DNA from: Hormiphora californensis
Lineage: Eukaryota > Animalia > Ctenophora
Reading direction: 5' to 3'
DNA: 64,000 nucleotides
Assembly: GCA_020137815.1 (NCBI GenBank)
Contig: CM035362.1
Location: 2,232,001-2,296,000 of the forward strand
The translations under genes and the position numbers were made by a program. Position 1 is the first letter of the stretch; each line of letters opens with the position of its first letter. The notes below the pieces were generated by a model. The model had not been told where the DNA came from and did not search any database. It saw nothing but the letters and a program-made list of their open reading frames with translations. Of this stretch, positions 322 through 60,721 are shown piece after piece.

Positions 322-2873
322 ATGATACGAATCCTTCTCTTTACATCTCTATTGTGGAGGACTGCCATCTTCACAGGTTAGTCATGCTCAATTAATTGAT
401 TAGTTAATCAACTGTATAAAACAAGGTAAAATTTATAGCGCGCTGAGATGGGTCTGCAGCGCAATTAAACTCTAATTGCGTTGCAGACCCATCTGAGCGC
501 ACTGTCGCGTGCCCAATTTGAGAATTAAATCGGGGTCTGGCGCCGCCAGACAGATTTTTAGTGTGTTCTGACTTCTGACTACGCTCTTATGATTTCAATC
601 ACATCTCAGACTGGACAGCTGTAACGAGAGCTAAGCATATACCATGGGATCTAGAGGGAACACCCCTCCAGATAAAAACGGCCTCCACTACACTGGGCAG
701 TAATGACGTAATTCGGCTACATTTTTTTAAAACATCCGTTGATGGGACAAAAAATCAATTTGCCAGCAAGCTGATAGTGACGTTCAACTCGACTGCAGTA
801 ACCTACTCGTTAAGCGGCTGTGTGGACTCTCCCGTAGACCTGCCAGTACAGCCCCCAGATGGAGTTGAGAGTATCTGGGTGGTAGCCAAAACAGAGACCA
901 CCCTCATTGTCAAGTGTAATGGTGTAAAGGTGCTGAACTACCTGTTCGCAGATAGTTCAAATTCAGATGACCGCTGTGTTACTAAGCTGGGTGGTGATGT
1001 TGTGGAAACGATCACGTTTCACACCTCTGATACAATCTCTAAATTCTACAGAGCTGAACAAGGTATAGGCAGGGGTTATTCATCCTAGATATAAACTATA
1101 GGGGGGAAACAGTCGTACCTGAATCTCAGGTTCACGTCACGGCTATTTACACCTGGGACCTGAGATCTCAGGGCTCAGTACGTGACGGCTATTCCCTGAG
1201 ATTTCAGGGAAATTTTCAGGCAATAGCCAAGAATGATATATCAGGTCTTATATATCAGGTGTAAATTGCAGGCAAGACTGTTTCCCCATGATAGTAGTAT
1301 TATACATATTACAAAGTATACGTTTCCCAAATTAAACCTTGCTATCTACAACAACTAAAATATCCAATACCAGGATGGACAGCTGTAGAGCGAAATAAAG
1401 TCTACATACCCTGGGACCTGGAGGGAACTCCTCTCCAGATAAAGACGGACTCAGCACTGGGCAGTAATGAACTAATCAGGGTGGTTATGTACAAAACGAA
1501 AAGTACCTATACCGGTGTTCTTTCTGTGAATTTCCTCTCCCCGATGCAGTATTCTATAGGCAAGTGCACCACCAGCTTCACCGACCTTCCAGTACAACCC
1601 CCGGTGGAGGTGGAGAAGATCTGGACGATCAACAAAACACAGACCGCCCTCATCATCAGGTGTAATAATGTTGAGGTGCTGAACTACCTGTTCGCAGATA
1701 GTTCAGATAGCCGCTGTGTTACTGAGCATGGTGGAGATGTAGTGAGTGGGATCAAGTTTCATTCCGATGATGACACAGCATCTGACTTCTACAGAGCACC
1801 CGGTAAAGATAAAACTTATAATAACACATATTGGTCGGATTTTCAAATTGTATACCCCAGACCCCTAGTCATTTTGCAATAACCAAACCCTGCTGAAATA
1901 GATCATCCCTTTCAATAAATTTGCATTTTAATAAACCCTCCATTCAGTTGAGTGTCCCGCCTTTCCTGTTGAGGGATCAACACAAGGAAACTGGCCAGTC
2001 CGGACTGCCTCGACAACAGGGACAACGGTCTCCATCGAATGTACTGCCACTCATATCCTTGTGGGGAATGCGACATTGACTTGTCAGGATGATGGATCGT
2101 GGTCAAGTGAGGCACCACAGTGCGATAAAATCGGTAAGCTTTAAACTTCACTACTTTACCGACTACGAACGCTATAACGAGATTACCGACTTGATTCACA
2201 TGCCTTTTAATTTCCGAGAAATTGAAGAAAATTGTTTTTTCCCTAGTCGAGTGTCCTGCATTTACTGTTGAGGGATCAACACAAGGAAGCTGGACTGCCT
2301 CACCAACAGGGAAAACTGCCACGATCGAATGTGCTGCCACCCATATCCTTGTGGGAAGTGAAACATTGACTTGTCAGAAGAACGGATCATGGTCAAGTGA
2401 TATACCACAGTGTGACAAAATTAGTAAGTATAAAATTCACACTTCGATAGCTCAATTCACATGCCCTTTAATTTCCGAGAATTTGAAGAAATTTTTTTCC
2501 CTAGTCGAGTGTCCTGCATTTACTGTTGAGGGATCAACACAAAGAAACTGGACTGCCTCACCAACAAAGAAAACTGTCACGATCGAATGTACTGTCACCC
2601 ATATCCTTGTGGGAAGTGAAACATTGACTTGTCAGGATGATGGATCGTGGTCAAGTGAGGCACCACAGTGCGATGATATCGGTAAGCATATTTTAAACTT
2701 CACTACTTTACCGACTACGAACGATATAACGAGATTACCGACTTACGAATCACACGTGTGTACTGTGTACACACATTGCATTACACACGTCACACACATC
2801 ACACACGTCACACACACGTCACACACATCACGCATTCCATAACCAATAACAACAAAATAATCTAGATATCTAA
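322..2873 (+). CDS. Secreted protein, copy A: signal peptide + 2 uncharacterised ~145-aa domains + 3 Sushi/CCP domains (spliced)
   Basis: Phase-1 GT-AG exons: 322-376 (MIRILLFTSLLWRTAIFT), 610-1062 and 1374-1802 (both WTAV..IPWDLEGTPLQIKT...CN.V.VLNYLFADS...C), and 1948-2133, 2247-2423, 2505-2681 (ECP...IEC..THILVG...LTCQ..GSWSS..PQC, the Sushi consensus). The tiny last exon 2866-2873 is a guess. Confidence 0.8.
1100..1288. mobile_element. Dispersed MITE-like family with GGGAAACAGTC...GACTGTTTCCC ends
   Basis: Inverted termini; related copies or fragments at ~4496-4678, ~11005-11248, ~13070-13194 and ~15115-15154. Confidence 0.65.
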
Positions 2874-3752
2874 ACTACGGTAAAAAGGAGCTGAGGGGTC
2901 AGATGCCCTCTGTAGTCTGTTGCCTTGTAAAAAGGTTTGAACAAAACAAGTAGTCTGTACCGAATATCCACTTTTCTTTTCCACCCCTTTCCACTTTAGG
3001 TAAATGAAATGGAGCCACCTCAGAGATCTTTCAAAAAACACTTTTTGGGAATGGAATAACTGCAGATCATTTCTTGCAGATTCAACCGCAGAAGTCATAC
3101 CCGAATCACTCTCCACCCACTCCTAATAAGTTTAATTCCTTTACTAGTGCAGAAAAATTGAAATATAAAAATTACGATGATAACGTAACGGTATCATTTA
3201 ATAAGAGGAGCCTTCATTTAGTGGAACCTTAAAACCTTAAATTAACAAAGTTTTGACCACTTTCGTTAATTAAAGGTTCCGTTAAATTCCGGTAATAATT
3301 AGGTATTGCATGTTATAGTATGCACATGCCTCTCTCTATCCCTCTATCTGTCCCTATATCTATCCCTCTATCCATCTCTATCCCTCTATCCATCTCCATC
3401 CCTCCCTCTCTATCCCTCTATCCATCTCCATCCCTCCCTCTCTATCCCTCTATCCATCTCCATCCCTCCCTCTCTATCCCTCTATCCATCTCCATCCCTC
3501 CCTATCTATCCCTCTATCCATCTTATCCTCCATACTTTTAGATCACTTGATGCTATTCAAGACGATTGAGAGGACATATTTCTCTCTCTCTCTCTCCCTA
3601 GTTAAACACATGTCTCTCTCTCCTGCTGATGCGTTGCTTTGGCAAGAGAGCAGCATAGATCATCGAGAATAATATTTTATTTGTTGTTGGTCACGCATAG
3701 CAGAGGTTTAAAGCTTTAATATTGCCGCATCTAGCAATTATTTTATCTACTT

Positions 3753-6700
3753 ATGATACGAATCCTTCTCTTTACATTTCTATTGTGGAGGACTGCCATC
3801 TTCACAGGTTAGTCATGCTCAATTAATTAATTAATTAATCAATATTTGTAACATTTATAGCTGTCTAATTGTGCTGCAGACCCATCTGAGCGCACTGTCG
3901 CGTGCCCAATTTGAGAATCAAATCGGGGTCTGGCGTCTGACTACGCTCTTATGATTTCAATCACATCTCAGACTCACTCTATTCTCATTTTATTTCAATC
4001 ACATCTCAGACTGGACAGCTGTAACGAGAGCTAAGCATGTTCCATGGGATCTAGAGGGAACTCCCCTCCAGATAAAAACGGCCTCATCTACACTAGGCAG
4101 TAACGACGTAATTCGGCTGCATTTTTTTAAAACATCCGTTGATGGGATCAAAAATCAATTTGCCAGCAAGCTGATAGTGACGTTCAACTCGACTGCAGTA
4201 ACCTACTCGTTAGGCGGGTGTATCGACTCACCCACAGACCTGCCAGTACAGCCCCCAGATGGAGTGGAGAGTATCTGGGTGGTAGCCAAAACAGAGACCA
4301 CCCTCATTGTCAAGTGTAATGGTGTAAAGGTGCTGAACTACCTGTTCGCAGATAGTTCAGATGACCGCTGTGTTACTAAGCTGGGTGGTGATGTTGTGGA
4401 GACGATCTCCTTTCCCACCTCTGATACAATCTCTAAATTCTACAGAACAGCTGCACCAGGTAGGCAGGGGTTATTCATCCTAGATATAAACTATAGGGGG
4501 GAAACAGTCGTACCTAAATCTCAGGTTCAGGTCACGGCTATTTACACCTGGGACCTGAGATCTCAGTGCTCAGTGACGGCTATTCCCTGAGATTTCAGGG
4601 AAATTTTCAGGCAATAGCCAAGAATGATATATCAGGTCTTATATATCAGGTGTAAATTGCAGGCTAGACTGTTTCCCCATGATAGTAACGGGTGACAACT
4701 AAAAATTGTTACTAATTTAAAACAGCTGTAGAATTTTTCCCTTTTGAGATACAGCTTCGGGCCAGTGATAGAACGATTTTTCGGACAATTTTGAATCATG
4801 ATAACATAACGGCGATGACTAAAACGTTCATTCTCATAGCGATATCGGATCATTTCCTCTTGCCCCACCAAAGCATATAGTACGGAGATTTGAAATTTCT
4901 ATGTTATCAGAAACGACCTTCCCGATGAGATAGAATTCTCATAATTGGAAGTCTGGTTGTTCATGTCATAACCAACATAACTGCCAAGTTTGAAGATTTT
5001 GGCTGATTAGGAAGTTGGGTTTCCACGGTCATTAATGTTTCGAGAGATGTCGAAATGGCGATTTCTCAAATTACCTGTAAACTACGCTTTGTTACAGAAG
5101 ATTCTGATCAGGAATTGAGATTTATGAAGTTTGAAGCAAAGTTAATTTCGTTCAAAATTGTCTGAAAAATCATTCTATCACTGTCCCGAAGCTGTATTTC
5201 GACTAGAACAGGCGCTAGAGGTGCTAGAAAAACGTGTAGATTTCACGGACTATATACTTTGGTGGGGCAAGAGGAAATGATCCGATATCGCTATGAGAAT
5301 GAACGTTTTAGTCATCGCCGTTATGTTTTTCTGATTCAAAATTGTCTGAAAAATCGTTCTATCACTGGCCCGAAGCTGTATCTCAAAAGGGAAAAATTCT
5401 ACAGCTATTTTAAATTAGTAACAATTTTTAGTTGTCACCCGTTAGTATTATACATACATAGTATACGTTTCCCAAATTAAACCTTCCTATCTACAACAAC
5501 TAAAATATCCAATACCAGATTGGACAGCTGTAGAGCGAGATAATGTCTACATACCCTGGGACCTGGAGGGAACTCCCCTCCAGATAAAGACGGACTCAGC
5601 ACTGGGCAGTGATGAACTAATCAGGGTGGTTATGTACGAAACGGACAGCACCTATACTGGTAGTCTTTTTTTGAAGTTCTCGTTCCTCAACTTCCTCTCC
5701 ACAATGCAGTATTATATAGGCAAGTGCACCACCAGCTACATCGACCTTCCAGTACAACCCCCGGTGGAGGTGGAGAAGATTTGGACGATCAACAAAACAG
5801 AGACCGCTCTCATCATCAGGTGTAATAATGTTGAGGTGCTGAACTACCTGTTTGCAGATAGTTCAGATAGCCTCTGTGTTACTAACCATGGTGGAGATGT
5901 AGTGAGTGGGATCAAGTTTCATTCCGTTGAATCAACGGTTGATGACACAGCATCTGACTTCTACAGAGCACCCGGTAAAGATAAAACTTATAATATCACA
6001 TATTGGTTGGATTTTCAAATTGTATACCCCAGACCCCTAGTCATATTTACTAAGTACAGTTAGGGAGTAGTCAGGGCATATGATGCCAAAATAAATTAAA
6101 AATGGGCATAATTGTTATCAAGCTAATTTCACTTCTAGTAGGCTCTATGAGGTCCTTAGAAACACCAAAAAAATTGGCCGCGGTTTTATCAATGAGGAAG
6201 TTGGGTTTTTGGGCCACGCCCTTTTACCTATGTTTTTAGCCTTCTGGCGAAACCCAAAATGGGGCTTAGGAAAGGAGTAGAGACAAATCTAAGGACACTA
6301 AAATGTGTAGCGTCCTCGCATTAGTGGGGGTAGGTGCGGAAATTAAGTCTCTATCTCATCTGGTTAATTAGATAATTGGATAATTAGATATGCGCATAAC
6401 CGTATTTTGGCTAAATGGCTATAGCCACTTAGGAATGGGTTAGAGACTTTTCACTGGTGCTATTTTGTAGGCAATAGCCAAGTTATGGGGGGTTGACGTC
6501 GAACTTTTAAGCTCTATCTCCAACCGTTTGACCGCTATTTGGCATTAAAGATGCTCAAAATGAGCAAAAAACGGTAAAAAGCCCGATTTTGAGCATTTTT
6601 AAAGCCAAATAGCGGCCAAACGGTTGGAGATAGAGCTTAAAAGTTCGACGTGGACCCCCCATAACTTGGCTATTGCCTACAAAATGGCACCAGTGAAAGT

Positions 6701-9700
6701 CTCTAAACCATTCCTAAGTGGCTATAGCCATATAGCCAAAATACGGTTATGCGCATATCTATCTTGTCATCAATCTACTAAACTCGCTATAATGCAATGC
6801 TCCCTCAATTTATTTGTGGTTGAGCTCTCTTGTGGATCTGAGGACACGTACGACGTCTGATTTTGAGGAACAATGATCAAAATGGAATACAGATTACACA
6901 CTCCAAGAAAGGGAAATGGTTGACGTACTTTGAAACTGGGGAATCTAGAGGTCCAAGATACGAAGATGTGACGTGAAATGGAGCTACTAATTCTAACTAG
7001 GAACGTTTGACTGACTGTTTTTATGAAGGAGTCATACTTTATCCCAATTCATTCTCATTTTGATCTTTGTCTACTGATGATTGGTGCCTCCTCGTGGGGC
7101 ACCATGAAACATGTGTATAGACCTTAAAAACTGCTGTTGTTTTTAATTTGTATAATTATCCAATTATCTAATTAACCAGATGAGATAGAGACTTAATTTC
7201 TGCACCTACCCCCACTAATGCGAGGACGCTACACATTTTAGTGTCCTTAGATTTGTCTCTACTCCTTTCCTAAGCCCCGTTTTGGTTTTCGCCAGAGGGC
7301 TAAAAAAGCAATTAAGGCCAATTAGACCCAATTATACTCAATTAGGGCACTTTATCGACCTCAGACGGATTGGAAAAGTTGCTTACGTGATTCAACGTAT
7401 CGAAATTAGTCGGGTTAAGTGGTTTTCGCTATGATATGATCTGCAGGGCAAGCGAGTCTGGTAACTTGAAACACCGCGGAGGGCTATTTGAAACACTTTT
7501 CTCCAAATCCGCTGTCGGAAATTTTTGATGTTAATTTTGAGCATAGGGAGGATATGAATTATGAGTTTAGCCATTTCCGCCAAAAATTGGCCGAATTTGG
7601 GGCAAAAACTGTTTTCCTGGCTATTTGAAACACTTTTCGGAAACATTCACTGGACCAAGCACATGTAACAAAATTCAGATTTCAGACATGGAATAGCTCT
7701 GTACAACCCTTTTCTAACTATTCCATGTCGAAAATCTCGGTTTCGTGGACAAATTGAGGGAGATACGGCTGTTTCAAATTAGCAGACTGAGGCGGGCTAA
7801 TTGAAACACCAAATTTGGATAGATATCACGTGACCCTGACCCCGGAAGACAAAATGAGACATCTCAAACCACTTCAAAAACTACCCTGGGACTGTCTCGG
7901 TAACATAGGGTGAAAAAAATTTGGGTTCGACTTGATTTGTGGACACACAAAGGAAAAAAGTGAAAAACTGTTTCAAATAGCCAGTGGCTACCCTATTGGT
8001 TGGATTTTCAAATTGTATACCCCTAGTTATATTACTAAGTACTGCAGTTAGGGAGCGGATTACAGCTATAATCTGAGCCTTGGGTATGCTACCTAAGCGC
8101 CGAATATTATGGTTGAATTATGGTTGAATCAACTACCCAATTGGTGAAGCTGATTCATTGAATAGTTCAGATAGCCGTAATTCAACTATTCTGAATTGCA
8201 ATAACCAAACCCTGCTGAAATAGATCATCCCTTTCAATAAATTTGCATTTTAATTAACCCTCCATTCAGTTGAGTGTCCCGCCTTTCCTGTTGAGGAGTC
8301 AACACAAGGAAACTGGCCAGTCCGGACTGCCTCGACAACAGGGACAACGGTCTCCATCGAATGTACTGCCACTCATATCCTTGTGGGGAATGCAACATTG
8401 ACTTGTCAGGATGATGGATCATGGTCAAGTGAGGCACCACAGTGCGATAAAATCGGTAAGCTTTAAACTTCACTACTTTACCGACTACGAACGCTATAAC
8501 GAGATTACCGACTTGATTCACATGCCTTTTAATTTCCGATAATTTGAAGAAAATTTTTTTTCCCTAGTCGAGTGTCCTGCATTTACTGTTGAGGGATCAA
8601 CACAAGGAAGCTGGACTGCCTCACCAACAGGGAAAACTGCCACGATCGAATGTACTGCCACCCATATCCTTGTGGGAAGTCAAACATTGACTTGTCAGAA
8701 GAACGGATCATGGTCAAGTGATATACCACAGTGTGACAAAATTAGTAAGTATAAAATTCACACTTCGATAGCTCAATTCACATGCCTTTTAATTTCCGAG
8801 AATTTGAAGAAATTTTTTCCCCTAGTCGAGTGTCCTGCATTTACTGTTGAGGGATCAACACAAAGAAACTGGACTGCCTCACCAACAGGGAAAACTGCCA
8901 CGATCGAATGTGCTGTCACCCATATCCTTGTGGGGAATGCAACATTGACTTGTCAGGATGATGGATCGTGGTCAAGTGAGGCACCTCAGTGTGATAAAAT
9001 CGGTAAGCTTTAAACTTCACTACTTTACCGACTACGAACGCTATGACGAGATTACCGACTTGATTCACATGCCTTTTAATTTCCGAGAATTTGAAGAAAA
9101 ATGTTTTTCCCTAGTCGAGTGTCCTGCATTTACTGTTGAGGGATCAACACAAGGAAGCTGGACTGCCTCACCAACAGGGAAAAATGCCACGATCGAATGT
9201 GCTGCCACCCATATCCTTGTGGGAAGTGAAACATTGACTTGTCAGAAGAACGGATCATGGTCAAGTGATATACCACAGTGTGACAAAATTAGTAAGTATA
9301 AAATTCACACTTCGATAGCTCAATTCACATGCCTTTTAATTTCCGAGAATTTGAAGAAATTTTTTCCCCTAGTCGAGTGTCCTGCATTTACTGTTGAGGG
9401 ATCAACACAAAGAAACTGGACTGCCTCGACAACAGGGACAACGGTCTCCATCGAATGTACTGCCACTCATATCCTTGTGGGGAATGCAACATTGACTTGT
9501 CAGGATGATGGATCATGGTCAAGTGAGGCACCTCAGTGCAATGATATCGGTAAGCATATTTTAAACTTCACTACTTTACCGACTACGAACGATATAACGA
9601 GATTACCGACTTACGAATCACGTACACACACACATCACACACACACATCACACACATCACACATTCCATCACACATTCCATCACCAATAACAACAAAATA

Positions 9701-9714
9701 ATCTAGATATCTAA
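3753..9714 (+). CDS. Secreted protein, copy B: same architecture with 5 Sushi/CCP domains
   Basis: Exons 3753-3807, 4010-4459, 5519-5974; Sushi exons 8270-8455, 8568-8744, 8826-9002, 9115-9291, 9373-9549. Near-identical to copy A, introns included. Confidence 0.8.
4688..5442. mobile_element. Non-autonomous TIR transposon with TA target duplication (Tc1/mariner-type MITE)
   Basis: TA|acgggtgacaactaaaaattg...caatttttagttgtcacccgt|TA with ~200-bp imperfect TIRs; the paralogous site in copy A (~1295) is empty with a single TA. Confidence 0.9.
6068..7993. mobile_element. ~1.9-kb insertion with nested inverted repeats (foldback-like)
   Basis: Absent from copy A. Inverted pairs ~6235-6386/7152-7305 and ~6387-6562/6586-6761; flanked by an imperfect ~65-bp direct repeat of intron sequence (~6001-6067 and ~7994-8055). 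Confidence 0.7.
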
Positions 9715-10354
9715 ACTACGGATAAAAGGAGGGGTCAGATGCCCTCTGTACCGATTATCCACTTTCCTTTTCCACCCCTTTCCACTTTAGGGAAATGAAA
9801 TGGAGCCGCTTCAGAGATCTTTCAAAAAACACTTTTTGGGAATGGAATAACTTTGATTTTAGTTTCGGTCTATAGCCACAATAATAATAACAATAAGGGT
9901 GGATAAACTTTACCCAATTTAAGATAATTTTGTAATCAGTTCTGTTAATTTAGTTGAAAGTTGCTCTATACTACTAGTAGTACTAGCACATGGTCCACTA
10001 GAGAATACCAAATAAAATAGACACACAAACTAGAAGAACGTTCTAATAGAACATGGAACTTCTATGTTCTTAACTTGTTTATATAGAATTATAGCTATTC
10101 TATGTGAACAAATTGAGTTTTTGTAAAAAAGTTAAGTTTTTAGTCAAGGAAATACACACAGGATATACACTTCCGCGTCTTCCAAATCGCCAATGAGCGC
10201 TAATAATTAGGCACTATTAATATTAAGCCACTATACAACAGTAAACTGAACTAGCTAATAATTTGATACTAGTTTATTACATGTAACTAATATTTCATAC
10301 GCGTTATATCCGAAAGATTAAATATATTACGTGTCCCTATACTTCACTATTATA

Positions 10355-13300
10355 CTAACTACTATAACTTGTCCCAGCAGCTACTGCACTATGACTCTTC
10401 AACACCAAGGCAGCACTGATCCTTCTATTCCCTGCAACACCCGGTGAATTTGCAGCTGCTGGGGATCCCGTGATGAGAGGACTTGAGGATGCCTCCATGG
10501 GAGTACCGGCACTGAATGACCTAAAATGGGATTATATCAACTTTTCTTCCAAGAACTGACGGTGCGGCGTAGAAATTGTAGAACTGATCATTTTAAAATC
10601 CAGGCAAAGGTCAGACAGAGTATCATATTTATTATATGGCCATTATATATATTACCTAAGGAAGGGTACTGCTCCTGCAACAGATTGTCTTCCTCCCGCT
10701 CTGCTCACCCTCCTAGGATCTCCTCCCGTGACAACAGATATCCGCTGGCCCGTTATCGCTGCAGCTATCTGACCGCTATTTGCACTCATACTCTCCCTTC
10801 TGGTCCGGGCTTGTTTTCGGTCAATGAACCCACATGATAGCGTGTGTAGAATCTACATGGGGTGCGAGGTGGTGTTTGTGGGTAGGTGTGGGGGGTTGAA
10901 ATAGAAATTATAGTCACTATCATTTTACTATTTTACTATTTTACTATTTTCTCAACTAAACCAGGAACAAGATGATAGCTCATTAAACCGGATCTATGAA
11001 TAATAGCCCTGAGACCTCAGATCAGGGGCCGTGATCAGGAGTTTACTCTCCCGAACCCGACACCTATAATAATGAGAACCTGCCTGTGTAGTTCCTGATG
11101 GTGGGAGGGGAGGGGGGCTATTCTCCTAGTGCCGGCGATATCGCTTTGCGATAGTCCCCTGTGGGCTTGCCGTTGGCAAGCCCAGGCACTCCGTAGATAG
11201 ATAGGGGCCGTGACCTGAATCTGAGGTTCAGTCACGACTGATTTCCCCCAAAGGACAAACCTGGAAAAGGTTGAAGACTGCAAAACTGCTCAACTCGCTA
11301 CTCCGATAGATTAGGACACAGGGATTTATTGCAGCATTTAGGTAAACAACTGAAATGAGAAACGTTTTTGAGAGTTCCCATCAGGTTTCCTAGTGTGAAA
11401 CTGTGAAACGTTGTGTAACCTCGATCAACCATGACATGTTCATATTATACCTGTCTGGCGCCGCGACCCATCTGAGCAATTTGAGAATCAAATGGGGTAT
11501 GGCGCCGCCATACAGTATTATACCTGTGTAATGGGAAAAGAAGAAGAGAGCTAGAAAGAATGAGTTTCCTTTCACGTTTTCCACCTTCTTTATCGTAGTG
11601 TAAACCCACATCACCGCACCAAACACTGAAAAGTGAAAAAGTGATCTATTTATGTCGAAATGTAGATTTATGAGCTGGGCCCCGCTGTTAAAACAGTCGT
11701 GCCTGTCACGGCAATTTACCCTTGAGACCTGGGGTTTCGGCCTCAGAGCTAGAGGTAGATAGCAGTGACCATTGTGAGGTGATTGCAAAACATAAGGCTG
11801 AACTTGGTGACATGAACACCTGTCATGTGAGATGGACGTCGCACGCAACTGAGATCGATCCCACAGGAACCTGTTACTCACGAAGCGAGAATAGGTAGCA
11901 ATGGCAAAACATAGGGCTGAACTTGGTCAACCGAACCCTTTCAGAAGTATGAGCTACACAAGGTAACTTACCAGCAAATGTGATGTTGCAGATGAGGAAC
12001 ACCACACTGATAATAACAATGGTTCGTGTGGTCCGGGACATTGTGGCATCCCTAACTGCTGTCTGCTCCTGCACTGTACGGGCCTTGATGAACCCTTTAG
12101 ATCTCTACATAAAGGGAGGATAAAGTGTCAGTGTGATGAGAGAATTTAAAAGAAGTTACCTGCTCAACTTTTATATGGGGATCTCCCAAATGAGCCTCCC
12201 GCGATGACTTCTAGTTAACCCAACGATCCTGGACACTAAACAGAGACTAACTATTTCTATAACTAACATGTAAATCAGAGTTCTACTGTATTTCTATAAC
12301 TAACAGGTAAATCAGAGTTCTACTGTATTTCTATAACTAACAGGTAAATCAGAGTTCTACTGTATTTCTATAACTAACAGGTAAATCAGAGTTCTACTGT
12401 ATTTCTATATTCTATCACTAACCCGGATGGCCCACAATGTGAGGAAGAGTGCACACATGACAATGACAGTAGGTAGGACATAGGGAACCCCGTATACCAG
12501 ATCCGGAGGGAGAAGATTGGTTAGACACTGGTTCACTGTCGTACATCTCACCACTCTTCTGTGACCTGTATGAAAGAGGTGATTAAACAATTGTTTAATG
12601 ACCAGTTATAGGAACAAATCTGTCATTTCAGCGCAATTCTTGACCACTCTCCTGATCGCTCCGCTCGCAGGGAGAAACCTCAGGATTAGATATAAAAATT
12701 ATAAACAGGGAGGGTGGTTTATAATTCCCTAGCTCACCCAGTATAAAGTTTTCAATTCCAATATAGACCATGAATATGAACCAGATGACTGTGTAAACTG
12801 CAATTGATATCCAGACTGGCCGATATAGTATCCTGGAAATGAATTTGAGGTGGATTATACACCAAGAAAACCTAGTTTAATTTACTTTTCTCTGCCCCAG
12901 GAACCGACCGAATCAGGAAATACTGGTCCCTGATTAGCCGATAACCAGTCACGTGACCTAAATAACGAGTTCTGATTGGTTGTTTACTTGTTTCGGTCGG
13001 TTCCTGCTCTGTCCCATCATACTCCTACCCATCGGTTGCCCAGTGCCCAGCTCCTCCGTTGCAGAAGGAGGAAACAGTCGAACCTGAATCTCAGGTTCAG
13101 GTTACGGCTACTTACCCCTAAGACCTGAGACCTCAGAAGTAAATTATAAATACCCGTTACTTGAACCTGAGGTTCAGGGGCGACTGTTTTCCCTCGGTAC
13201 CTGTAGAATGGCCTCCAAACCGCGATTGCTCGAGTGACGGCGAGAGTTGCATTGAGAAAACAGCTAACCCGGGAGGTAACATTGAACATCAGTAGAACAG

Positions 13301-15100
13301 TGTAGCAATAGAAACCAAAGGGCGTCTGGGGGATGGAGATACTGCTCCTTTGTAGTCCCGTCTGAGGTGCAATGAATTATTATTAGAGCGGATATATCCT
13401 GGTCATCATCATGATAAAGAAAGAAATAGGGGAGCTAGGAATCCTGGTAGGATTTAACAGCGTCCCTGATTGTCATACTGTAAATAACAGTCTAGGATTC
13501 GATTGGGAAGCCCCATTCGGGGCCTGGCAAGGCCCCCCGACCCGAATATAATCCAAACTCAACCCATCCCCCCTAAAACATCCCCCCTAAAACTAAAACA
13601 ACGGGGCCGAGCCGGCAGGCCCTTAATACCAGATGAAAAAAAAACCATTCGGGGCCTGGCAAGGCCCCCCGACCCGAATATAACCCAAACTCAACCCATC
13701 CCCCCTAAAACATCCCCCCTAAAACTAAAACAACGGGGCCGAGCCGACAGGCCCTTAATACCAGATGAAAAAAAAACCATAAACCATAAACCATAAACCA
13801 TAGATATTTTTAGAGTGAAAGTTTTGAAGCCCCCTGAAGTAGTAGAGAGGTGTTCTATGGCTCGTTGGAAAGGTCTCGAGGTCCCGCGACGTATAGGGGG
13901 TGTGGCGATGGCCATACCCAAACCTATAAGGGGTAGGACGCGAAAAACAGTCAAAATAAGGGGTATACAGAACTAGGCAATTGGAAGGAGTAGAAAGGTG
14001 TTCTAGGGTGCGTTCGAAAGCTCTCGAGGTGCTGAAGTAATTGGAATGTAATTGGAAGTAATTACATGTAATTAAAGGGTAATTACATGTAATTAAAGGG
14101 TAATAACATGTAATTAAAAGGTCTGCATGATCCCAAATGATAATTTAAACATATTTTGACGTATTTGGAGGCCCTGAGACCAGCGGATGGCCAAATTTAA
14201 TCCGGTTTCGGGTCGGCTGACGTAAAAACTCCGCGTTTTGGTCGAGGTAAAACCATAAACCATAACCATAGATATTTTTAGAGTGAAAGTTTTGAAGCCC
14301 CCTGAAGTAGTAGAGAGGTGTTCTATGGCTCGTTGGAAAGGTCTCGAGGTCCCGCGACGTATAGGGGGTGTGGCGATGGCCATACCCAAACCTATAAGGG
14401 GTAGGACGCGAAAAAACAGTCAAAATAAGGGGTATAAAGAACTCGGCAATTAGAAGGAGTAGAAAGGTGTTCTAGGGTGCGTTCGAAAGCTCTCGAGGTC
14501 CTAAAGTAATTGGAATGTAATTGGAAGTAATTACATGTAATTGGAAGTAATTACATGTAATTAAAGGGTAATTACATGTAATTAAAAGGTCTAAATGACC
14601 CCAAATGACAATTCAGACATATTTTGACATATTTGGAGGCCCTGAGACCAGCGGGTGGCCAAATTTAATCCGGTTTCGGGTCGGCTGACGTAAAAACTCC
14701 GCGTTTTGGTCGAGATAACACACAAAAAACATTTCAAGGGAACCACGCGTTTCAATATGTCACACATATACTCACATCGACAACTATGAACGATACAACT
14801 TGAAGAAGAGCGGTAATCGCAGTCAGGGAATCAGTGATAGCAATGCCAGAGTAGAGCATGGAAACAAGGGTGTTTCGACTGATCCAATAGTACTTGAGGA
14901 CGGTGTAGTTTCCAAAGAGCGCGAAACTACCGATAACCAAATTACTCAGGATTTGGAAAAGGAACATGTCTATATATGGGGAAAACAGTTGTGACTGAGG
15001 AACATGTCTATACATTAGTAGTTTAGAGTAGAATGTTAGTGGTTGCCAACCATTGGTTGGATTTCTTCTCAAGCCGAGTATATATATAACTAATCGGAGA
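10355..15100 (-). CDS. Rhodopsin-like (class A) GPCR, multi-exon
   Basis: TM1-2 (GSFALFGNYTVL...IAITDSL, ~14775-14960), TM3 (VSCFLNATLAVTRAIAVWRPF, ~13200-13360), TM5 (~12420-12570), TM6 (TTRTIVIISVVFLICNITF, ~11970-12105), TM7 (VYLNAAINPCVLIYRS, ~11262-11390), tail exons ~10656-10853 and 10355-10521. Start not resolved. Confidence 0.8.
12252..12408. repeat. 37-bp minisatellite, ~4 copies, intronic
   Basis: Unit tatttctataactaacaggtaaatcagagttctactg. Confidence 0.9.
12898..13006. mobile_element. 109-bp MITE, hAT-type (8-bp TSD)
   Basis: TIR caggaaccgaccgaa; flanks ctctgccc/ctctgtcc. Confidence 0.85.
13503..14720. repeat. Composite intronic repeat: 2x ~127-bp unit, then 2x ~470-bp unit with (aaaccat)n and (taattacatg) sub-repeats
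   Basis: Direct repeats ~13513-13645/13645-13780 and ~13775-14250/14250-14715. Confidence 0.8.
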
Positions 15101-16045
15101 AAAGACAAAAGTAGTCGTGCCTGGATCTCAGGTTCAGCCACAACTGTTTCCCTCTATGTGTTTCCAATGGAAGTTCTATGTGTTACCAGCAAGGTCCTGT
15201 CGACATACGGTTACACGGGACCTAAGTGCTTGGTAAAATTAATGGCAGAAAAACTATTTTGTACAAGCTCACTACTGAGAAATGAATGACAACCTAGGCC
15301 TAAAGAAAAATCGAATGAATTATCGCTTCCAGAAGGAAGTTACAAAATTCATTTTCTATTGGCTTATCGGAATTCGTTCCATTTGACAATTTATTATCAG
15401 TTGTGATGGTGACACACAACTTGCTTCATTATTTCAAACTGTTAATTAATAGCACGACCTACAGTCGGCTGTCGAGAGTTGGTCATAAAATTATTAGTGA
15501 TTTTAGCACATACATAGTACCTATGTAACATAAATTTAGGTAACTAAATATCATCACGATTCAATTACGTATCGATTCGGTATCAGCACATGGATTCAAA
15601 TAAGCTCAACTGCAATTAATATTTGGGAAACATATTTGGGAAAACTGAACTCACACAGTACCAAATGAAGCAATTTATTACCTCAATTTAAGTGATATCA
15701 ACCAGACAAATTACTGGTGTCGCCCACAACAACCCAGCGGGTGGTGAACCACACTATATATTATAGTTGGCTGTACCACTTCGTGTTGGCCGTTGGACTT
15801 CACCAATTACCCAATTATCTGGGTTCCCATAGCACACACACATATGTGAATAAAAGGTACACTGGGCCGGTATAAGCACATTAGGGAGTTTTCTCAGACC
15901 CGGCCGGCGTCACCAGTAGGATTCTCACATTTCCTACTTGTATTTTGCACTGGCTCCTAACTGATAAGATCCAGCCGCTGCAGCAGGCGACCTCGACCTT
16001 GCCTATCTACGTGAGAAATTCTTGGGCTGCCGGGGGTTGCCCACC

Positions 16046-17401
16046 ATGCCCTCTACACCCCCCACCCCGGCAGGCCCTCGACCTAATGGTAAGTTAGGAC
16101 TGACGAGACGCTACTCCACTGAATGCCCGACAAGAAAATCAGCAAGAGTTGCGAGTCAGAGAGTCAACAACAACAAAACTACAACCCCTGTGAAGAGAGA
16201 CCCTGTTATTGCAAAGGGTGTTAAGAGTAGCAAGGACACTAGAAAAGACACTAGCAAAGACACTAGCAAGGATGATATTTGTATGTGTAGTAAACAGAAG
16301 GACAGTAGGGATATGTGTGTTGGACCGGACAGAAGTATGTTGGGAGTGAGTGATAAGTGTGTGGGGACTGATGATATAGAACTTTTTGATAAGGGAGTGG
16401 TGACTGATTCTACGGAAGTAGAAGACAAAGGTGTAACGACAGAGCGAAAACAACTAACTGTCCATGTTAACACCCCCCTCTCTCTCCCCCCATACACGGT
16501 TGATATTGCATCTAGAGAAGAGGAATCTGTACCTGCACCTGAACCTGAACCTGTCAGAGAACCTGAACCTGTCAGAGACGCACCAGCTGCAGATCCTTAC
16601 CTCAACTCTCCGGTAAGATCCATCCATATTGAATCTGATCTCACTCACATCACTACGGAAGCCCTTGCCAGCACCATCAGTTTTATTAAGGAGGGGCACC
16701 GGGAAGTAGCCACGTTTGGTGTTGACTATAGCTATGGAGGGAAGGTACATCCCGCTACCCCATTTCCATCGGAGGGTCCTCTCCATGACATCATAACATC
16801 ACTGTTAGGTACCATTGGAGAGCATAACTCATGCCTCGCCACACTGTACAGAAACGGGGGTAGCTCAATTCCCTGGCACCAGGATGATGAGGTACAGATC
16901 GTCCCTGACTCAGATATTGTATGTGTGTCGTTTGGAGCCACCAGGTCACTCCACATTAGAACTGTGTTTGGGCCCAAAGCTAACCATACACACGTTCAAT
17001 CACATGGCTCGTGCTACGCCATGTCAGTAGCGTGCCAGAACCAGTGGGAACACTGTGTCCCAGCGGAACCTGAAATTGCCGGGCCTCGGATTTCGCTGAC
17101 TTTTCGGAAGCTCAGGCCTACCCCGACAGACTCGAGCACTAACATCGTGCCCCCTCGACTCAATATTCCCCCCATCAAGCAACCCGACATGCCTGAACAT
17201 CAACCGAAACGGATCCTCGTCCTTACTGACAGTGGGTTTTACCGTTTATCATCACCCATTGGCCGAGACACAGATAGAAATGCATTTCTAGCTATCCTTC
17301 TCAAAGGCTATCTAGCTATCTCTAAAAGAGTCTGGCGGCATCTACATAGTCACAACATTAGTATCTCACAATATATTGGTGATCTAGGTTCTCATCTTTA
17401 G
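16046..17401 (+). CDS. Intronless AlkB-family 2OG-Fe(II) dioxygenase ORF, probably a truncated retroelement ORF1
   Basis: ccaccATG start; NSCLATLYRNG..SIPWHQDDE (HxD), VSFGATR, QWEHCVP (distal H), RISLTFR (2OG-binding R-x5-R); basic low-complexity N-terminus; RILVLTDS just before the ORF loses coding character at ~17235. Confidence 0.85.
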   Translation: MPSTPPTPAGPRPNGKLGLTRRYSTECPTRKSARVASQRVNNNKTTTPVKRDPVIAKGVKSSKDTRKDTSKDTSKDDICMCSKQKDSRDMCVGPDRSMLGVSDKCVGTDDIELFDKGVVTDSTEVEDKGVTTERKQLTVHVNTPLSLPPYTVDIASREEESVPAPEPEPVREPEPVRDAPAADPYLNSPVRSIHIESDLTHITTEALASTISFIKEGHREVATFGVDYSYGGKVHPATPFPSEGPLHDIITSLLGTIGEHNSCLATLYRNGGSSIPWHQDDEVQIVPDSDIVCVSFGATRSLHIRTVFGPKANHTHVQSHGSCYAMSVACQNQWEHCVPAEPEIAGPRISLTFRKLRPTPTDSSTNIVPPRLNIPPIKQPDMPEHQPKRILVLTDSGFYRLSSPIGRDTDRNAFLAILLKGYLAISKRVWRHLHSHNISISQYIGDLGSHL

Positions 17402-19497
17402 GAAACTGAAAGCTGTCGACACCTGATACAAGATGAAATTTTCCAAAAATGAATTCCTTTTTCTTTCATGTTATAAAGTATAAAGGAAGCTGATATATGT
17501 TATAAGGAAAGCATACATAATACAATCTCTTTCTGGCCGTGGCGCCGACCCGATATAAGCACATTGCCGCTTTTGAGAATCAAAACGGGGTCTAGCTTGG
17601 ATATTGACACCTGGCGCGACCCCCCGCACCCTCCGCGCCAGGTGTCTATGTCACCAAAGGTCTAGCATGGTCGGACAAGCTTGTTCACAAGAAAGAGAAG
17701 GACGTGTCTGCAGCAGCAGGTCTTATAATTATACCAATTTCTCCTGGCACACTGTGACATTTCTTGTGCCGTGTCTACAATTCTCCCACAGCTTTTTCTT
17801 TTCTCCCCTTTCAGCTCTTGCTTCCTTAATTTACGTGTATCACAAGACTATTGCAGTTCAGCAAATTCCATGTATTTATCTCCTTCTCTTTTAGGGTAGC
17901 TGTATGCACATACAACTTCATACGGGCTGGGAATGATATCAATCGTCCGTTGTACTATGTGACGATTCGGAATCACATAGAGCCGGTAGACTAAATAATA
18001 ACACCTAAAACACAACGCAAGAACTGTAATTTTGGGGCTGTCAGAGCATTGGGCCAATGCCATTGGCCTGACAGTTTTGGCGCCAAAATGAAAGTTCTGT
18101 ACAATTATATAGTCGTTAAAACAGTAAACTGTAAAGTGTAACACTGTCACACCGAGTACACAAACAAAGTTGCAAAATAAAATTATAATTTTGTCCTAAA
18201 TGCATCCATTATAGAAAGTGGCCAGGTAGATGAATTAACGCCCTATCCGCATGTCATAAATTTCCGTAATTCAGGGCATGTCCGGCGCCTCAGTGGGCAC
18301 ACGAATCATTATATGGAAGTGTGACAGAAAAGAAAATTATATTTTCTGACACTATCCTGCCAGCAGTGCGGACACGGCAAATTAGGGATGGTGAGAAATA
18401 GCGAGAAAAGTATATGTGGGAGAGGAGCTGTTGGGAGTGAGAGGGATGGGACGCCTCCATGCTGTTTGTGGCTAACAGCAGAGATAGGCACAGTTGTCAA
18501 TTATACAGACATGGATTATAGAGATATGGAGAGACAAAGAAAGTTGACAGAGGGGCGGTGGTGGAGGCCAAGATGGTGAACTAGAAAATGGATGAGGTTT
18601 CAACAGCAGCTATCCGGACCAGATGATGCTGGCCCAACAAGATCAGGTGGTGGTTTTGTGGTGGATTTCGTGGTGGATTTCGATTCGTGCTTTGGAACTG
18701 ATTGCTGGTTCGTGAGTTAAGGACCCGAATTAAACATTTTGGAAGCGTTCATTTTGTTATTTCGTGAATCGTATTTTTTGTCCGCGTCTGAAAAATACGA
18801 TACGTTTTGCAAATGTGAAATTTACTCGTGGTTGACATAGTCTAACAGTAGCTGCCTGGCAAGGTCAGCTTGTTTGGACAACAGACTCAGAACAGAAAGT
18901 CACTGTCTGGCGCCGCCGACCCGATCTGATTGGGGTATGGGCGCCGCCATACAGGAGAGTCAGAGAATTTAAAGTGAAACATAGAGTTAGGGTCTGCATC
19001 TGATCAGTTGAGTTGGAATGGACCAGGAAACGTCTGGGATATCACCTCCGATTACCTGAGGTAATACCTCCCCAGTTCCCACACAAATCTCAAATCGAAA
19101 CGCAAGGATTTATTGAATTAAAACAGTTAAAACACAATACTCCACATTGCAGATACGCTTCCTATCACACATTCTGGTAATAATTATCTCTCTTTAAAAC
19201 ACTATTTAATTAGTATAGTAGGACTCTAGTATGAGGTAGGTATACAGCTGTGATACAACAATACAATACATATCTGTACATTTACAGCCCGTATAATAAC
19301 ACATGATAATATCGCAGAAAGTAAACTACAATTTCTTGAACTACAAGTTCACCTAGTTACAAATACAATGATTGCCTAGTTCACTAATGACCATGTCAGT
19401 TACCCTATATCTTCCATCTTTATCAATATAAGTCCCTTCGAATCCAGCTCCAGGGACCAAGTTACCACGACCTGACTGTGTAAAATATTAAACCACA

Positions 19498-31667
<12,170 letters not shown>

Positions 31668-33864: not shown

Positions 33865-36800
33865 AGCAGGGACCTCGTTCCAGGTGTCTGAGTGGACATC
33901 GTACCTGTAAACCTGCAGTAAGGAGACAGGGTGGTTAGAAATTAGTTGACATCGTACCTAATATCTTAGAGAGTGCGATTTCGGACTGTTTGTGACAACT
34001 AAAACAGGCTAGCCTAGGCTTAGATTAAATCCACGAACCAACCCCAAACCGTTTCCGTGTTTTGTGATGTTCAAAGATGGGCGGTGAGCAGCTAGTGGTG
34101 ATCAGTAGTTAGTAGTAAGTGGGTGTAGGGGATGTAAGCGGTAAGGGTTGGGGGAGGTAGTGGTGATCAAGTGAAATATTTCTATTGTACGAAAAAAAAC
34201 AAGAAAACTCAAAGATAATGGAAATACTAAAACACTTAGTAATCATATCAATTGATTGTTTGAATTTTAGTAATGCCAAATCGTCGTTTTCTTTAACTGT
34301 ATGTACTGACATCCGGGGCCGCCACATAATTAACAGTTATACCAAGCTTCATCTGACTCGTCCTGGCAATCTGGTTCTCCATCACAGAGCCAATATTTAT
34401 TAATACATTCCCTGTTATCACAGGTCCATTGACTCTCCGAGCAGCCACAGTCAGTCTCATCGCTGGAGCAGTCCACGATACCATCACACCACCAGACATG
34501 CCGGATACACTCTCCATCAGAACACCCTTTCTCCCCAGGGGAACATGATGGCTCAACGCATATAAATTCGTCTGACCCATCTTCACAATAATTCCACCCA
34601 TCGCACACTTTATCGACAGGGACACATCTACCGTTTGGGCACCTCCTCCCAGAAGGACAACAGCCAAGTATACCCTCGGGACAATCATAAAAAGCCTCCG
34701 AGGCTATGATACAATAAACGAAGATGAGAGCGATCATCATATTGTGTCAAGTCTAAAGAGAGAGAGAAGTGTTGTTTGAGATTAGAGTTGGTATTAGTGA
34801 GTGGTTTTAAAGAATTGTCACAGACTAAACATTGCATCTGCATCACGGTAGACTAAATAAAGTGTTCGAAAGGCGTCGTAACTCTTTGATCCCTGGATAA
34901 CTGCATTTAATAAGGGCACATACATCGCCAGGGTACATGCGTGTACAATGAGTGACAATCGAAAAATGTTAGCACGGAGAAGTCACAAAAAAAACTGCAT
35001 TTTAAATTGTTTCTATTCTTCTCAGTGGATTTGGCCGGGATCGCTATTTTTGGCAGGATCGGGTCCTAACTAACCCACAAGCAGAGTGAGTTGTGCCGGT
35101 AACGCAAAGAGTGCAGCCGTCTAACCGTCTGTCAACACTGCGATAATCGTGCATGCGGGGAAGTAGGCAGTGTTCTAACACTACAAAGACAGACCTGAAC
35201 ACGCTAGTGAACTTTGCTCAAGACAATGCAAATGACGCTGACGACAGACGGATAGGACCGTACCCCGTACCATTTGAGCCAGGCATCACAAATATTATTT
35301 GAAATGCGAGGTTCAGTAAAAACAACTATCCCCATGACAAGTACCGTAGTTACAGAAGCATATAGCAAGCAGGAAACGGGAGATACAACCGATTCCAACT
35401 ATACACTGTGTGCGGCTGGGTTGGTTTTAGATGTTGGGACACATTAGCCGGACCAAATTTACAAGAATAGCAGAAAAAATTGTGCGGCGGGCACCTTGAA
35501 CCGCCCTAGTCATTTTTCAGGGACTATAATCAGGCTTAGATCAAATCCAAGAACCAACCATCAGCCCAAACCGTTTCCGTGTTTTGTGATGTTCAAAGAT
35601 GGGTGGTGATTAGCTAGTGGTGATCAGTAGTATTAAGGGGAATATAGGGCGTGTAAGGGTTGGGGGAGGTAGTAAAGTGGTGATCAAGTGAAATATTTCT
35701 ATTGTACGGAAAATACAAGAAAACTCAAAGAATAATGGAAAAACTCAAACACTTAGTAATCATATCAATTGATTATTTGAATTTTAGCACTGCCAAATCG
35801 TCGTTTTCTTTAATTGTAATTTCCACATCCGAAACCGCCACATAACTCATTACAGTTAGTCCAAGCTTCATCCGACTCGTCTTGACAGTCTGGTTCCCCG
35901 TCACAGAGCCACCATTTAGTAATACAATCCCCGTTATCACAGCGCCATTGACTCTCCGAGCAGCCGCAGTCAGTCTCATCGTTGGAGCAGTCTGCAACAC
36001 CATCACACCACCAATTGGTTGGGATACACTCTCCATCAGAACACCGTTTCTCCCCAGAGGCACATGGCACAATAAGCCCAGTGCATCTAATTTCGTCCGA
36101 CCCATCATAACAATCATTCCACCCATCGCACACTTTATCCTCAGTGACACATCTACCGTTCGGGCACCACCTCGCACAGTGACTCGGATGTATCGCATTG
36201 TAACAGCCGAGCGTACCACCGGGGCAATCATCAGTATAAAAAGCCTCCGAGGCTATGATACAATAAACGAAGATGAGAGCGATCATCATATTGTGTCAAG
36301 TCTAAAGAGAGAGAGAAGTGTTGTTTGAGATTAGAGTTGGTATTTTTGGTGAGTGGTTTTAAAGAATTGTCACAGACTAAACATTGCATTTGCATCACGG
36401 TAGACTAAATAAAGTGTTCGAAAGGCGTCGTAACTCTCTGATCCCTGGATAACTGCATTTAAGGGCACATACATCGCCAGGGTACATGCGTGTACAATGA
36501 GTGACAATCGAAAAATGTTAGCACGGAGAAGTCACCAAAAAAACTGCATTTTAAATTGTTTCTATTCTTCTCGAAGGTTAGAGACACCTTACACCGGACC
36601 TATATCAATCAGAGTTGTGCTGGCAACGCAAAAAGTGCAGCCGTCTACCAACACAATAGGGGGTATGTATAAACCCGGATAACCCGGATAACCCGGATAG
36701 TCCGGATAATTGATGTTTTCGAGATATCCGGATAACCAAGCTCGGATATGGGATTCCGGATAACTCGGATACTGAAATCCGGATAACTCGGATATCTCGA

Positions 36801-59092: not shown

Positions 59093-60721
59093 GGTGTGTG
59101 TGTGTGTTGTGTGATGTTATATTGTTGCCCAATCCAAGTGTGATTCACAAAGTTGAAATATGTGACAGGTATACACCTCAAAGCGAGTCTAGGAGTTGTA
59201 GGCAGGGGCTGTCTGGCGACCCTGATCTGAGCCGCTCAGATTTTGAGTATCAAAACGGGGCCTAGACAAGGGCAGGGCTGGGGGCTGAAGAAGAACCCCC
59301 TGTCTGTGTGCCTCTATTATATTCCCTTCTATTTTTTTTTGAAAGTTTGATATTTTAACTCAATCTCTCTCTCTCTCCACATCTCGACAACTCGGTTGAT
59401 ATACTACTTTCCTATGTTTTGCGTTTTTCACATTTTCCTCTTTTTACCATACCACCTTTGACATGGCTAAGGCTTGCTTTGTTCGACCCTCTCTCTCCAG
59501 TCTCCGCGCTCGGAGTAAATAAATGTAAAGGAGGGTTCAGGGTTAGAACTTAACAAGCTAAGGCAGTGAAAATGGAACAAGATGACATATTAGTTGAGTA
59601 TGGGACTGTGATTGTCACGTTGTCAATAAGTTATAAAGGGAACTATATTTTCCGACCTCTAGTCGTTGTCATGCCCAAACCTAAATTAAATGTTCCACCT
59701 CCCCCGGACCAAATGTGTTCGGTTTATATTTGTATTTGTATTTTGAATTGTTACGAAATAGAAAACGGTGAAAATATATTATATGTGAGAGAAATCTGGA
59801 TAGATGATTCTATCGCAGCTTCAAATTGGTTCAATTTTTAACGAATGCCCATATGTTTTTTGTGTGTTCTGTGTGTGCCTTATTTAGAGAGCTGTCCATG
59901 GTGGTAGTGCTGATATGTTTTTTTTTCAAAATAATGGGAGGAGGTTAGTTTGTGTGTGCATTTTCAGTATTCTGTTTTCGCGTTAAAAAAATGATTGGCA
60001 TTACTTTGCTTCAAGTTCACAGGAGTGCAACGTGATATGACTTTGTGTTGGCATTTGTTCGACACTTCTCTCGTCGTGACTCACCCAGAGCTGTAGCACT
60101 GCAGGGTCAAAGTGGGGTATAAGTGAAACGTGAGATATTAGGGGTCGTACGGTCGGCCAGTTTTTCCAATATTCTTTTACCATTGATTGTTGTATATATA
60201 ACATTCGTTAAAATGCTACTTCTTAAATCTCAATGTTTTGTTCTTTGCATTACAACAGGATATCATAAGTTGTCGCGCGGCTTTTGTTTTGCGCGTAGCT
60301 AAGTGCGCGCGCGTTTTATTAGAAAATGAATAAAGTTCAAAAATCAAAATTTTTGGTTTTTTAAATTCTGTTTTTTATCATTGATTGGTGGGCGTGACTT
60401 GATTGTGCATGACTTGAACATTTCCGAGGGGCCTCATTTTTAAAAAGGTTTTGGAATTTTGCGTTGTATCGAACGTCCAGTGATGCTCCAGCCCACATGA
60501 AGCGTTCCTAAAGACACGGTCTACGACGCCTAAGACACATTCTACTTGCATTGATTACTTTTTCACTCGTCGTAGACCGTGTCGTGGACCGCCCACGCCC
60601 CACCGTGGGCGGCGCTAATCGCTATGCAAGCGGCTAATGTAATGGAGCACCACTGGAAGATGGAAGGTTAAGTAAAATCGAAACTTAACATCAAATATTG
60701 TCTTCAGTTTATTGCAGTGAC

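Follow-up and report, generated by a model that had tools for sequence, protein, structure and literature searches.

The stretch of DNA analysed here, a window of 64,000 nucleotides from the genome of the ctenophore Hormiphora californensis, contains an ORF that encodes an AlkB-like dioxygenase domain. The locus raises the question of whether this is a host repair gene of the ALKBH2/3 type or part of a mobile element that carries its own demethylase and, if the latter, what kind of element it is and what the enzyme does. An initial annotation, made from the sequence alone, favoured the first ORF (ORF1) of a probable retroelement in which AlkB is followed by the start of an SGNH-like fold. The features of the locus, all on the forward strand, are as follows.

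15922..17229, +, inserted fragment of 1,308 bp: 5' part of the element, with the 3' end cut inside ORF1 (joint 15921->17230)
15922..16045, +, leader without ATG, 124 nt (5' UTR, possibly incomplete)
16046..17401, +, chimeric ORF of 451 aa, element-derived up to 17229 and flank-derived thereafter
16046..16600, +, N-terminal region, basic and of low complexity, with 12-bp and 18-bp tandem repeats
16682..17113, +, AlkB (ALKBH2/3-type) dioxygenase domain, aa 213–356 (R219, Y228/Y230, H278, D280, H336, R348, R354)
17114..17209, +, Pro-rich linker from AlkB to SGNH
17210..17229, +, SGNH esterase, initial strand only (block I through the Asp codon); the remainder of the domain is missing here
17230..17401, +, flanking host DNA, in frame until the first stop and outside the element; found in the allele without the insert, with the depth of the flanks and without homology to relatives

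The intronless ORF was confirmed, together with the reported basic N-terminus (16 K/R against 4 D/E in aa 1–70) and the Pro-rich linker ahead of the motif RILVLTDS (aa 389–396). The start needed revision in two respects: the foreign segment begins at 15922 and its leader measures 124 nt, not ~160 bp from a start at 15880, and the supposedly perfect Kozak context, with the A expected at −3 but a C at both +4 and −6, is good rather than perfect. RILVLTDS is present as described, but the insert stops within its Asp codon, so that the third base of this codon, the Ser and the final 56 codons are read from flanking host DNA. Homology to relatives ends at 17233–17239 in every frame, in keeping with the point at which coding character had been said to stop, and a continuation of SGNH by frameshift was rejected, as none was found in any frame. 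The idea that the leader holds an LTR with a primer site was likewise discarded, since by eye it matched a tRNA end over just 7 nt. A tblastn search with a LINE ORF2 query found no reverse transcriptase (RT) in the window, as the initial annotation had stated. By eye, the first 25 aa of the ORF look like the starts of two relatives, P0153 and P0154. Sixteen substitutions between copies were listed in the ORF, of which six were dropped as repeat misalignment and ten were classed, four as synonymous and six not, too few to read. Small shares of the words were found in the RNA runs X7 and X8.

Four public DNA runs (X1, X2, X5 and X6; two samples, two studies) were compared with the window over 14500–19000. 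The joint 15921->17230 was found in X1, X2 and X6, in X6 with 31 other letters between the two sides, replacing empty-site letters, while in X5 one 799-nt contig spans 15476–15921 plus 17279–17559. Since all four runs join across the segment, an allele without it is present in both samples. Summed contig depth, which is not copy number, was ~220–285 in the adjoining flanks and 2,600–16,700 inside the segment for X5, and 120–340 and 785–4,550, respectively, for X6; this is ~10x flank depth in X5/X6 and only ~2x in X1/X2. A contig of X1 aligned from 15922 onward with 76 unlike letters preceding, and therefore the segment also occurs in another context. Other copies have in-frame 42-bp skips (joints 16242->16285 and 16314->16357), and 4 nt are absent at 17011–17018 in X1 and X5 contigs. 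The segment is a real, polymorphic, truncated insertion, and the claimed mobile origin was upheld by the empty site in both samples and the raised depth over the segment.

None of the contig pieces listed spans the junctions of the filled allele, which is thus known from the window only. The window also has an error-like stretch at 25283–26247. The window copy keeps its 5' portion, stops within ORF1 and shows neither a 3' end with tail nor a target duplication. As it does not have LINE-type ends, we class it as a derived fragment instead of an intact member. An ordinary LINE insertion keeps the 3' end, is truncated at the 5' end and has a target duplication; the present copy is the opposite, and it likely arose by insertion followed by deletion, or as a fragment copied into a DNA break. 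It is unable to move by itself because the esterase and ORF2 are missing.

What the intact protein looks like can be seen from its relatives. The nearest are 51–57 % identical over the domain region and run on through a full esterase-like domain, the best full-length relative being 56 % identical to the window protein. Among 1.84 billion representatives searched, 5,532 matched at E<=0.001, ordinary AlkBs included. A profile of the downstream (SGNH) domain, made from 29 members of which 28 lie within the same set, was matched by 100 of the best 150 representatives at 50 % identity, some of them partial. When 30 long matches were scanned, AlkB was found in all 30, Pfam GDSL in 21 (all below the cut-off) and RT in none. 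The order in full-length relatives is basic tail, long helix, AlkB and SGNH esterase. It recurs in an AlphaFold model of P0153, the closest full-length relative (78-row alignment, mean pLDDT 82), in which a disordered tail is followed by a helix at 53–126 (74 residues in the model), AlkB and SGNH. The SGNH part of this model matched an SGNH fold with Z 16.8 (rmsd 2.5, 167 aligned), and the ZfL2-1 esterase was not among the 50 fold matches listed. The SGNH continuation predicted from the truncated ORF is thus borne out in relatives by Pfam, profile and fold search.

Conservation was counted over 78 members, ~30 % identical to one another. The AlkB iron ligands and the last Arg of Rx5R were present in 78/78 and the first Arg in 77/78. 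For SGNH, Ser and Gly were found in 78/78, Asn and His in 77/78 and the block I Asp-Ser in 78/78, while the block V acid position was Asn in 49/78 and Asp in 12/78. Judged from these alignments, both active sites appear to be under selection. Named members come from Pleurobrachia bachei (P0006) and Mnemiopsis leidyi (P0023), and Ctenophora was the commonest label of the Atlas clusters, with few recorded members. Two proteins of the family carry the names of bacterial MAGs and probably stem from contaminating contigs. No zinc knuckle or RT/integrase was found in standard-length members, a knuckle being seen only in the chimeric model P0023. In viral contigs the SGNH motif was found in 0 of 65 stretches; 11 stand-alone AlkB loci with AlkB motifs were identified there and served as tree outgroups. 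One search of prokaryote genomes gave 0/23, and another gave two loci, of which one (L024) is an ordinary bacterial AlkB.

The AlkB domain of the window protein matched Pfam 2OG-FeII_Oxy_2 over aa 225–354 (E 6e-17, above the cut-off), and the full catalytic set that had been reported is present (H278-Q-D280, H336 and R348-x5-R354). Matches to solved structures at E<=0.01 comprised 16 sequences, all ALKBH2 or ALKBH3, with human ALKBH3/2 as the best, and the family profile had no ALKBH5 match at E<=1. The lid Arg and Tyr-x-Tyr/Phe hold the flipped base; the corresponding residues R219, Y228 and Y230 are alignable to ALKBH2 and are kept in 78/78, 75/78 and 78/78 family members, respectively. By fold, the P0153 model was closest to ALKBH3 (Z 22.3, rmsd 1.9, 171 aligned) and ALKBH2 (Z 21.3), with lower matches to Escherichia coli AlkB (Z 15.6), FTO (Z 15.6) and ALKBH5 (Z 15.3), and Foldseek likewise placed ALKBH2/3 first. 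The lid hairpin was 8–10 residues shorter in all 18 element-type rows examined. Among ten stand-alone AlkB rows it was full in eight and ~7 residues in two, and the element-type deletion was seen in none. From its position, the shortened hairpin would be the equivalent of the human F1 hairpin. ABH2 and ABH3 repair m1A/m3C and act on ssDNA; their F1 hairpins set single- versus double-strand use and are needed for activity and specificity (PMC2965238, in part). Because the F1-like hairpin appears shortened, the substrate of the element enzyme may differ from that of ABH2/3.

The type of element was addressed with a metagenome scan, which gave 12 loci (L001–L012). In L008, an AlkB+GDSL ORF is followed directly by a 1,121-aa ORF with PHD/C1, endonuclease (E 1.6e-6) and RVT_1 (E 2.7e-36) matches. 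L010 has a PHD-AlkB-GDSL ORF followed by a PHD-endonuclease ORF, and L011 has an ORF1 of the L010 type followed by the start of a PHD-bearing ORF, both truncated where the contig stops. L012, which is short and related to L011, has <200 nt downstream, and L009 has a separate AlkB ORF ahead of a weak endonuclease ORF (E 0.024). L001 is a stand-alone AlkB ORF and L002–L007 are AT-rich stand-alone AlkBs. The RT itself was thus found in one of the 12 loci, L008, which belongs to a sister subfamily; it has a Mnemiopsis relative at 67 % identity, and its motifs look Crack/Daphne-like. PHD fingers occur in the sister ORF1s P0118 and L010.

The sister ORF1s are just 22–28 % identical to P0002, a member of the window's family, and the link to the window therefore needed testing. 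In an IQ-TREE phylogeny of 69 AlkB domains (68 of 172 plus L024; bootstrap not fully settled), the window protein, its family, L008, L010, L011 and L001 formed one clade with support of 99/96, which leaves out 27 stand-alone AlkBs and L009. The outgroups of this tree were stand-alone unnamed, bacterial and viral-contig AlkBs, without eukaryotic host ALKBH2/3 or plant-virus AlkBs. A FastTree reconstruction from the complete set of 172 domains recovered this grouping, though weakly (0.69). The family profile also aligns collinearly to the L008 ORF1 over AlkB and SGNH alike (99.8 %, 311 columns). Between the window and sister subfamilies, the SGNH parts are distant (22–29 bits).

None of the searches made turned up an RT next to the subfamily to which the window protein belongs. 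Among 4,468 candidates of 1,060–3,025 aa, no ORF1-RT fusion was found at E<=1e-10, which is weak evidence. By eye, RT contigs (120 clusters listed) showed no size match to ORF1 contigs, a comparison that is uninformative because these RTs lie nearest the sister subfamily. Many family contigs are 5–8 kb, circumstantially the size of ORF1 plus ORF2. The LINE context is shown for the sister ORFs, which have an ORF2 behind them (complete in L008, cut in L010 and L011); it was unseen for the window's own subfamily, although that subfamily very probably has an ORF2 too.

Taken together, the locus is best explained, with somewhat better than even confidence, as a 3'-truncated piece of the ORF1 of a ctenophore esterase-type LINE, with a captured AlkB that, by prediction, clears m1A/m3C from the RNA of the element itself. 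Counting against this reading are the presence of RT in only one of the 12 loci and the 25 % identity of that locus to P0002. As for ZfL2-1, the ORF1 protein (ORF1p) would coat the element RNA through its basic tail and oligomerise through its helix, and an AlkB domain within it would place many enzyme copies on that RNA. By removing m1A/m3C from the single-stranded RNA, these would allow reverse transcription to proceed. Both lesions stall reverse transcriptases. Repair of the RNA template is favoured because ABH2/3 and the RNA-preferring plant-virus AlkBs both repair such RT-stalling lesions; if the element is a LINE, m1A/m3C on RNA is probably the substrate. The initial annotation had left open protection of RNA/cDNA or the countering of methylation-based silencing, and the former seems the better fit, since the AlkB appears ALKBH2/3-like, not ALKBH5/FTO-like, by sequence and model. 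Esterase-type ORF1p forms coiled-coil oligomers, binds RNA probably through basic peptides and binds lipid (PMC3905857, in part). It is mostly single-stranded nucleic acid that acquires m1A/m3C lesions, and the plant-virus AlkBs that repair them prefer RNA (PMC2553587, in part).

Other explanations of the locus concern the nature of the element. It is highly improbable that the ORF is a host ALKBH2/3 gene, its processed pseudogene or an assembly chimera, even though its best solved-structure matches are human ALKBH3/2. The empty site, the ~100 clusters at 50 % identity and the SGNH fusion are unfit for a single-copy repair gene. The exclusion of a host ALKBH2/3 gene in the initial annotation very probably holds, the sequence being neither single-copy nor without paralogues that continue into SGNH or RT. 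A chimera could draw on the filled allele being known from the window only and on the error-like stretch noted above, but it would alter the story of this locus, not that of the family. We also regard it as very unlikely that the window subfamily is not a LINE ORF1 at all, its AlkB-SGNH cassette riding on another class of retroelement or on a non-autonomous element. This would account for the lack of an adjoining ORF2 and of LINE-type ends and for the distance between the SGNH parts of the two subfamilies, and GDSL ORFs are common to LINE, LTR and Penelope elements (PMC5408684, in part). The single clade, the common hairpin deletion and the collinear two-domain alignment nevertheless tie the window protein to a proven LINE ORF1 in L008. 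The contig sizes, circumstantially, and the absence of zinc knuckle or RT/integrase matches from standard-length members point the same way.

Two further explanations accept the same element and assign its enzyme another task; the two remain in contention since a change of specificity could follow from the shortened hairpin. Erasure of a host regulatory mark, either m6A on the element RNA or a DNA mark, with escape from silencing, is unlikely. In vitro, the AlkB of an orchid Gypsy element removes the methyl group of m6A in ssRNA, with silencing escape proposed there (PMC9289625, in part), and PHD fusions of the AlkBH3 clade, which the PHD fingers of P0118 and L010 recall, have been suggested as possible m6A demethylases (PMC4738411, in part). 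Such a role is difficult to reconcile with fold scores for ALKBH3/2 far above those for ALKBH5 and FTO, with solved-structure matches to ALKBH2/3 only and with the retained ALKBH2-aligned lid Arg and Tyr-x-Tyr. Quite unlikely, too, is a role in DNA, with 1mA/3mC being repaired on exposed single-stranded cDNA or, as the element inserts, on the target strand. It would agree with the activity of ALKBH2/3 on ssDNA (PMC2965238, in part), and the sister PHD fingers point to chromatin, but ORF1p packages RNA and is mostly on RNA through the cycle (PMC3905857, in part), and the hairpin that appears to be shortened, as mapped by position, is the one for duplex DNA.

Under the preferred reading, repair of RNA by a LINE ORF1p, the family resembles the esterase-type (type IV) ORF1p of CR1, L2 and RTEX elements, such as ZfL2-1, in its linker and C-terminal SGNH, with a basic tail in the window protein and a long helix in the P0153 model where those proteins have a basic peptide and coiled coil (PMC3905857 and PMC4120745, both in part), and the sister loci resemble CR1/L2/RTEX LINEs in having APE-RT behind ORF1. 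It differs from the ZfL2-1 type in an AlkB, catalytically complete by sequence, between helix and esterase, in a block V acid that is mostly Asn and in its ctenophore host. Ty3/Gypsy elements of Phalaenopsis are also retrotransposons that captured and kept an AlkB dioxygenase; they are LTR elements with a separate extra ORF, ALKBH5-like and with demonstrated m6A activity (PMC9289625, in part), whereas the ctenophore family is probably a LINE, with an ALKBH2/3-like AlkB fused to the esterase in ORF1, in ~100 clusters at 50 % identity. Plant RNA viruses, as mobile RNA genomes with their own m1A/m3C repair enzyme, provide the functional model used here, although their AlkB is embedded in the replicase polyprotein, unlike the ORF1 fusion (PMC2553587, in part). 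Human ALKBH2 and ALKBH3 (PDB 3h8o, 8jnr) share the fold, HxD...H, Rx5R and the lid Arg and Tyr-x-Tyr. In contrast to them, the element enzyme is multicopy, intronless, polymorphic and SGNH-fused, with 26–28 % identity over the domain and a lid hairpin ~10 residues shorter.

An AlkB in a retrotransposon is already known from the orchid Gypsy elements (PMC9289625, in part). No case in a LINE was found in the literature searched, outside of which lie Repbase and most subscription journals. The term AlkB is absent (0 occurrences) from the main texts of PMC4120745, PMC13343379, PMC3905857 and PMC12477816, and AlkB clades are discussed without LINEs in the relevant part of PMC4738411. The large AlkB-SGNH class of ORF1 in ctenophore LINEs thus apparently has not been described before. 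The chances seem about even that the family as a whole is a radiation of ctenophore LINEs with a two-enzyme RNA-packaging protein, in which an active AlkB proofreads the RNA for methyl damage or marks alongside a membrane-acting esterase, many lineages having a TQT dynein-light-chain-type motif. Meanwhile, ORFs of this kind will attract ALKBH2/3 annotations, so that ctenophore genomes and marine bins will seem to have more repair genes than they do.

If this is true, the family would be a new class of ORF1, and its members would be the first non-LTR retrotransposons to bring along an enzyme that repairs RNA or erases epitranscriptomic marks. The family also adds to the mobile RNA genomes that have independently captured an AlkB, known so far from plant viruses and orchid Gypsy elements, and its AlkB is from a subfamily different from that of the orchid. 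The iron and 2-oxoglutarate ligands of AlkB are near-invariant within ORF1s of members ~30 % identical, which offers a small, soluble, assayable domain with a single-residue knock-out. This touches on two open questions, namely the job of the enzymatic domains of LINE ORF1 and whether methylation of retrotransposon RNA, as damage or imposed by the host, limits retrotransposition. The radiation, if real, would mean that RNA methylation in the host restricts LINEs enough to keep an AlkB selected in >100 lineages.

The left junction of the insertion was compared with the empty allele, in which public DNA reads join position 15921 to 17230/17279 without the inserted segment. The 31 replaced letters of this allele are equal in length to 15922-15952 of the window, and by eye the final 16 letters of the two agree at about 10 positions. 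The sequence around the left junction (15912-15952) includes a 10-nt hairpin that bridges this junction, with a similar arm within the replaced letters of the empty allele. This likeness and the hairpin hint either at a capture guided by homology or at a site prone to breakage.

The following repeats, host genes and ORFs were identified elsewhere in the window:

579-9701, host gene with repeated Sushi modules and an unnamed domain of ~150 aa
13513-14718, tandemly duplicated units of 132 bp and 468 bp that contain 10-bp repeats
14500-14801, short repeat of very high DNA-read depth
17520-17670, short repeat of very high DNA-read depth, containing a 19-nt inverted repeat (17600-17652)
18426-19000, short repeat of very high DNA-read depth
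23918-24688, hydrophobic ORF
25283-26247, homopolymer-rich stretch, low-quality in appearance
27241-28266, hydrophobic ORF
35810-36295, host gene with LDL-receptor class A repeats
36589-38711, two arrays of a 21-bp unit in opposite orientation, open in several frames
58004-59092, host gene, tyrosine phosphatase exon
60689-61810, host gene, intronless uroporphyrinogen decarboxylase

The short very high-depth repeats are MITE-like. Both hydrophobic ORFs resemble membrane proteins and are GPCR-like by eye, with zero Pfam matches at E<=0.01. The appearance of the homopolymer-rich stretch calls for caution on this assembly.

Within the AlkB and SGNH/GDSL protein family, 27 of 77 members had a TQT motif in their N-terminal region, compared with a mean of 6.0 and a maximum of 13 in 500 shuffles, with kin not being independent. 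Examples are Pleurobrachia bachei P0006 (aa 139-144) and the N-terminus of P0130, and the motif resembles that of dynein light chain LC8. The window protein has no TQT and contains repeated D-K/M-x-V-x-T/P-like units at 16310-16445, in its N-terminal region.

Among the related proteins, P0133 (1,596 aa) combines two AlkB stretches with a C-terminal GDSL domain in a single protein. A subfamily comprising P0072, P0097, P0101, P0103, P0104, P0113, P0141 and others carries a ~250-aa tail that was missed by the SGNH profile and has SGNH-like motifs by eye. Among the metagenome loci, L002-L007 are stand-alone ALKBH2-like genes amid short unknown ORFs on AT-rich contigs, possibly from a large DNA virus. 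Locus L001 contains a stand-alone AlkB ORF (1194-1865) of the same clade as the window protein, without SGNH, and may represent the captured domain in a second arrangement; an upstream ORF (66-902) resembles an L1-type ORF1 by eye, a likeness to which Pfam gives no support. At L009 (914-2800), a separate AlkB ORF lies directly 5' of a weak endonuclease ORF. In the AlkB-domain tree this AlkB falls outside the window-protein clade on a long branch and may therefore represent an independent capture by another LINE.
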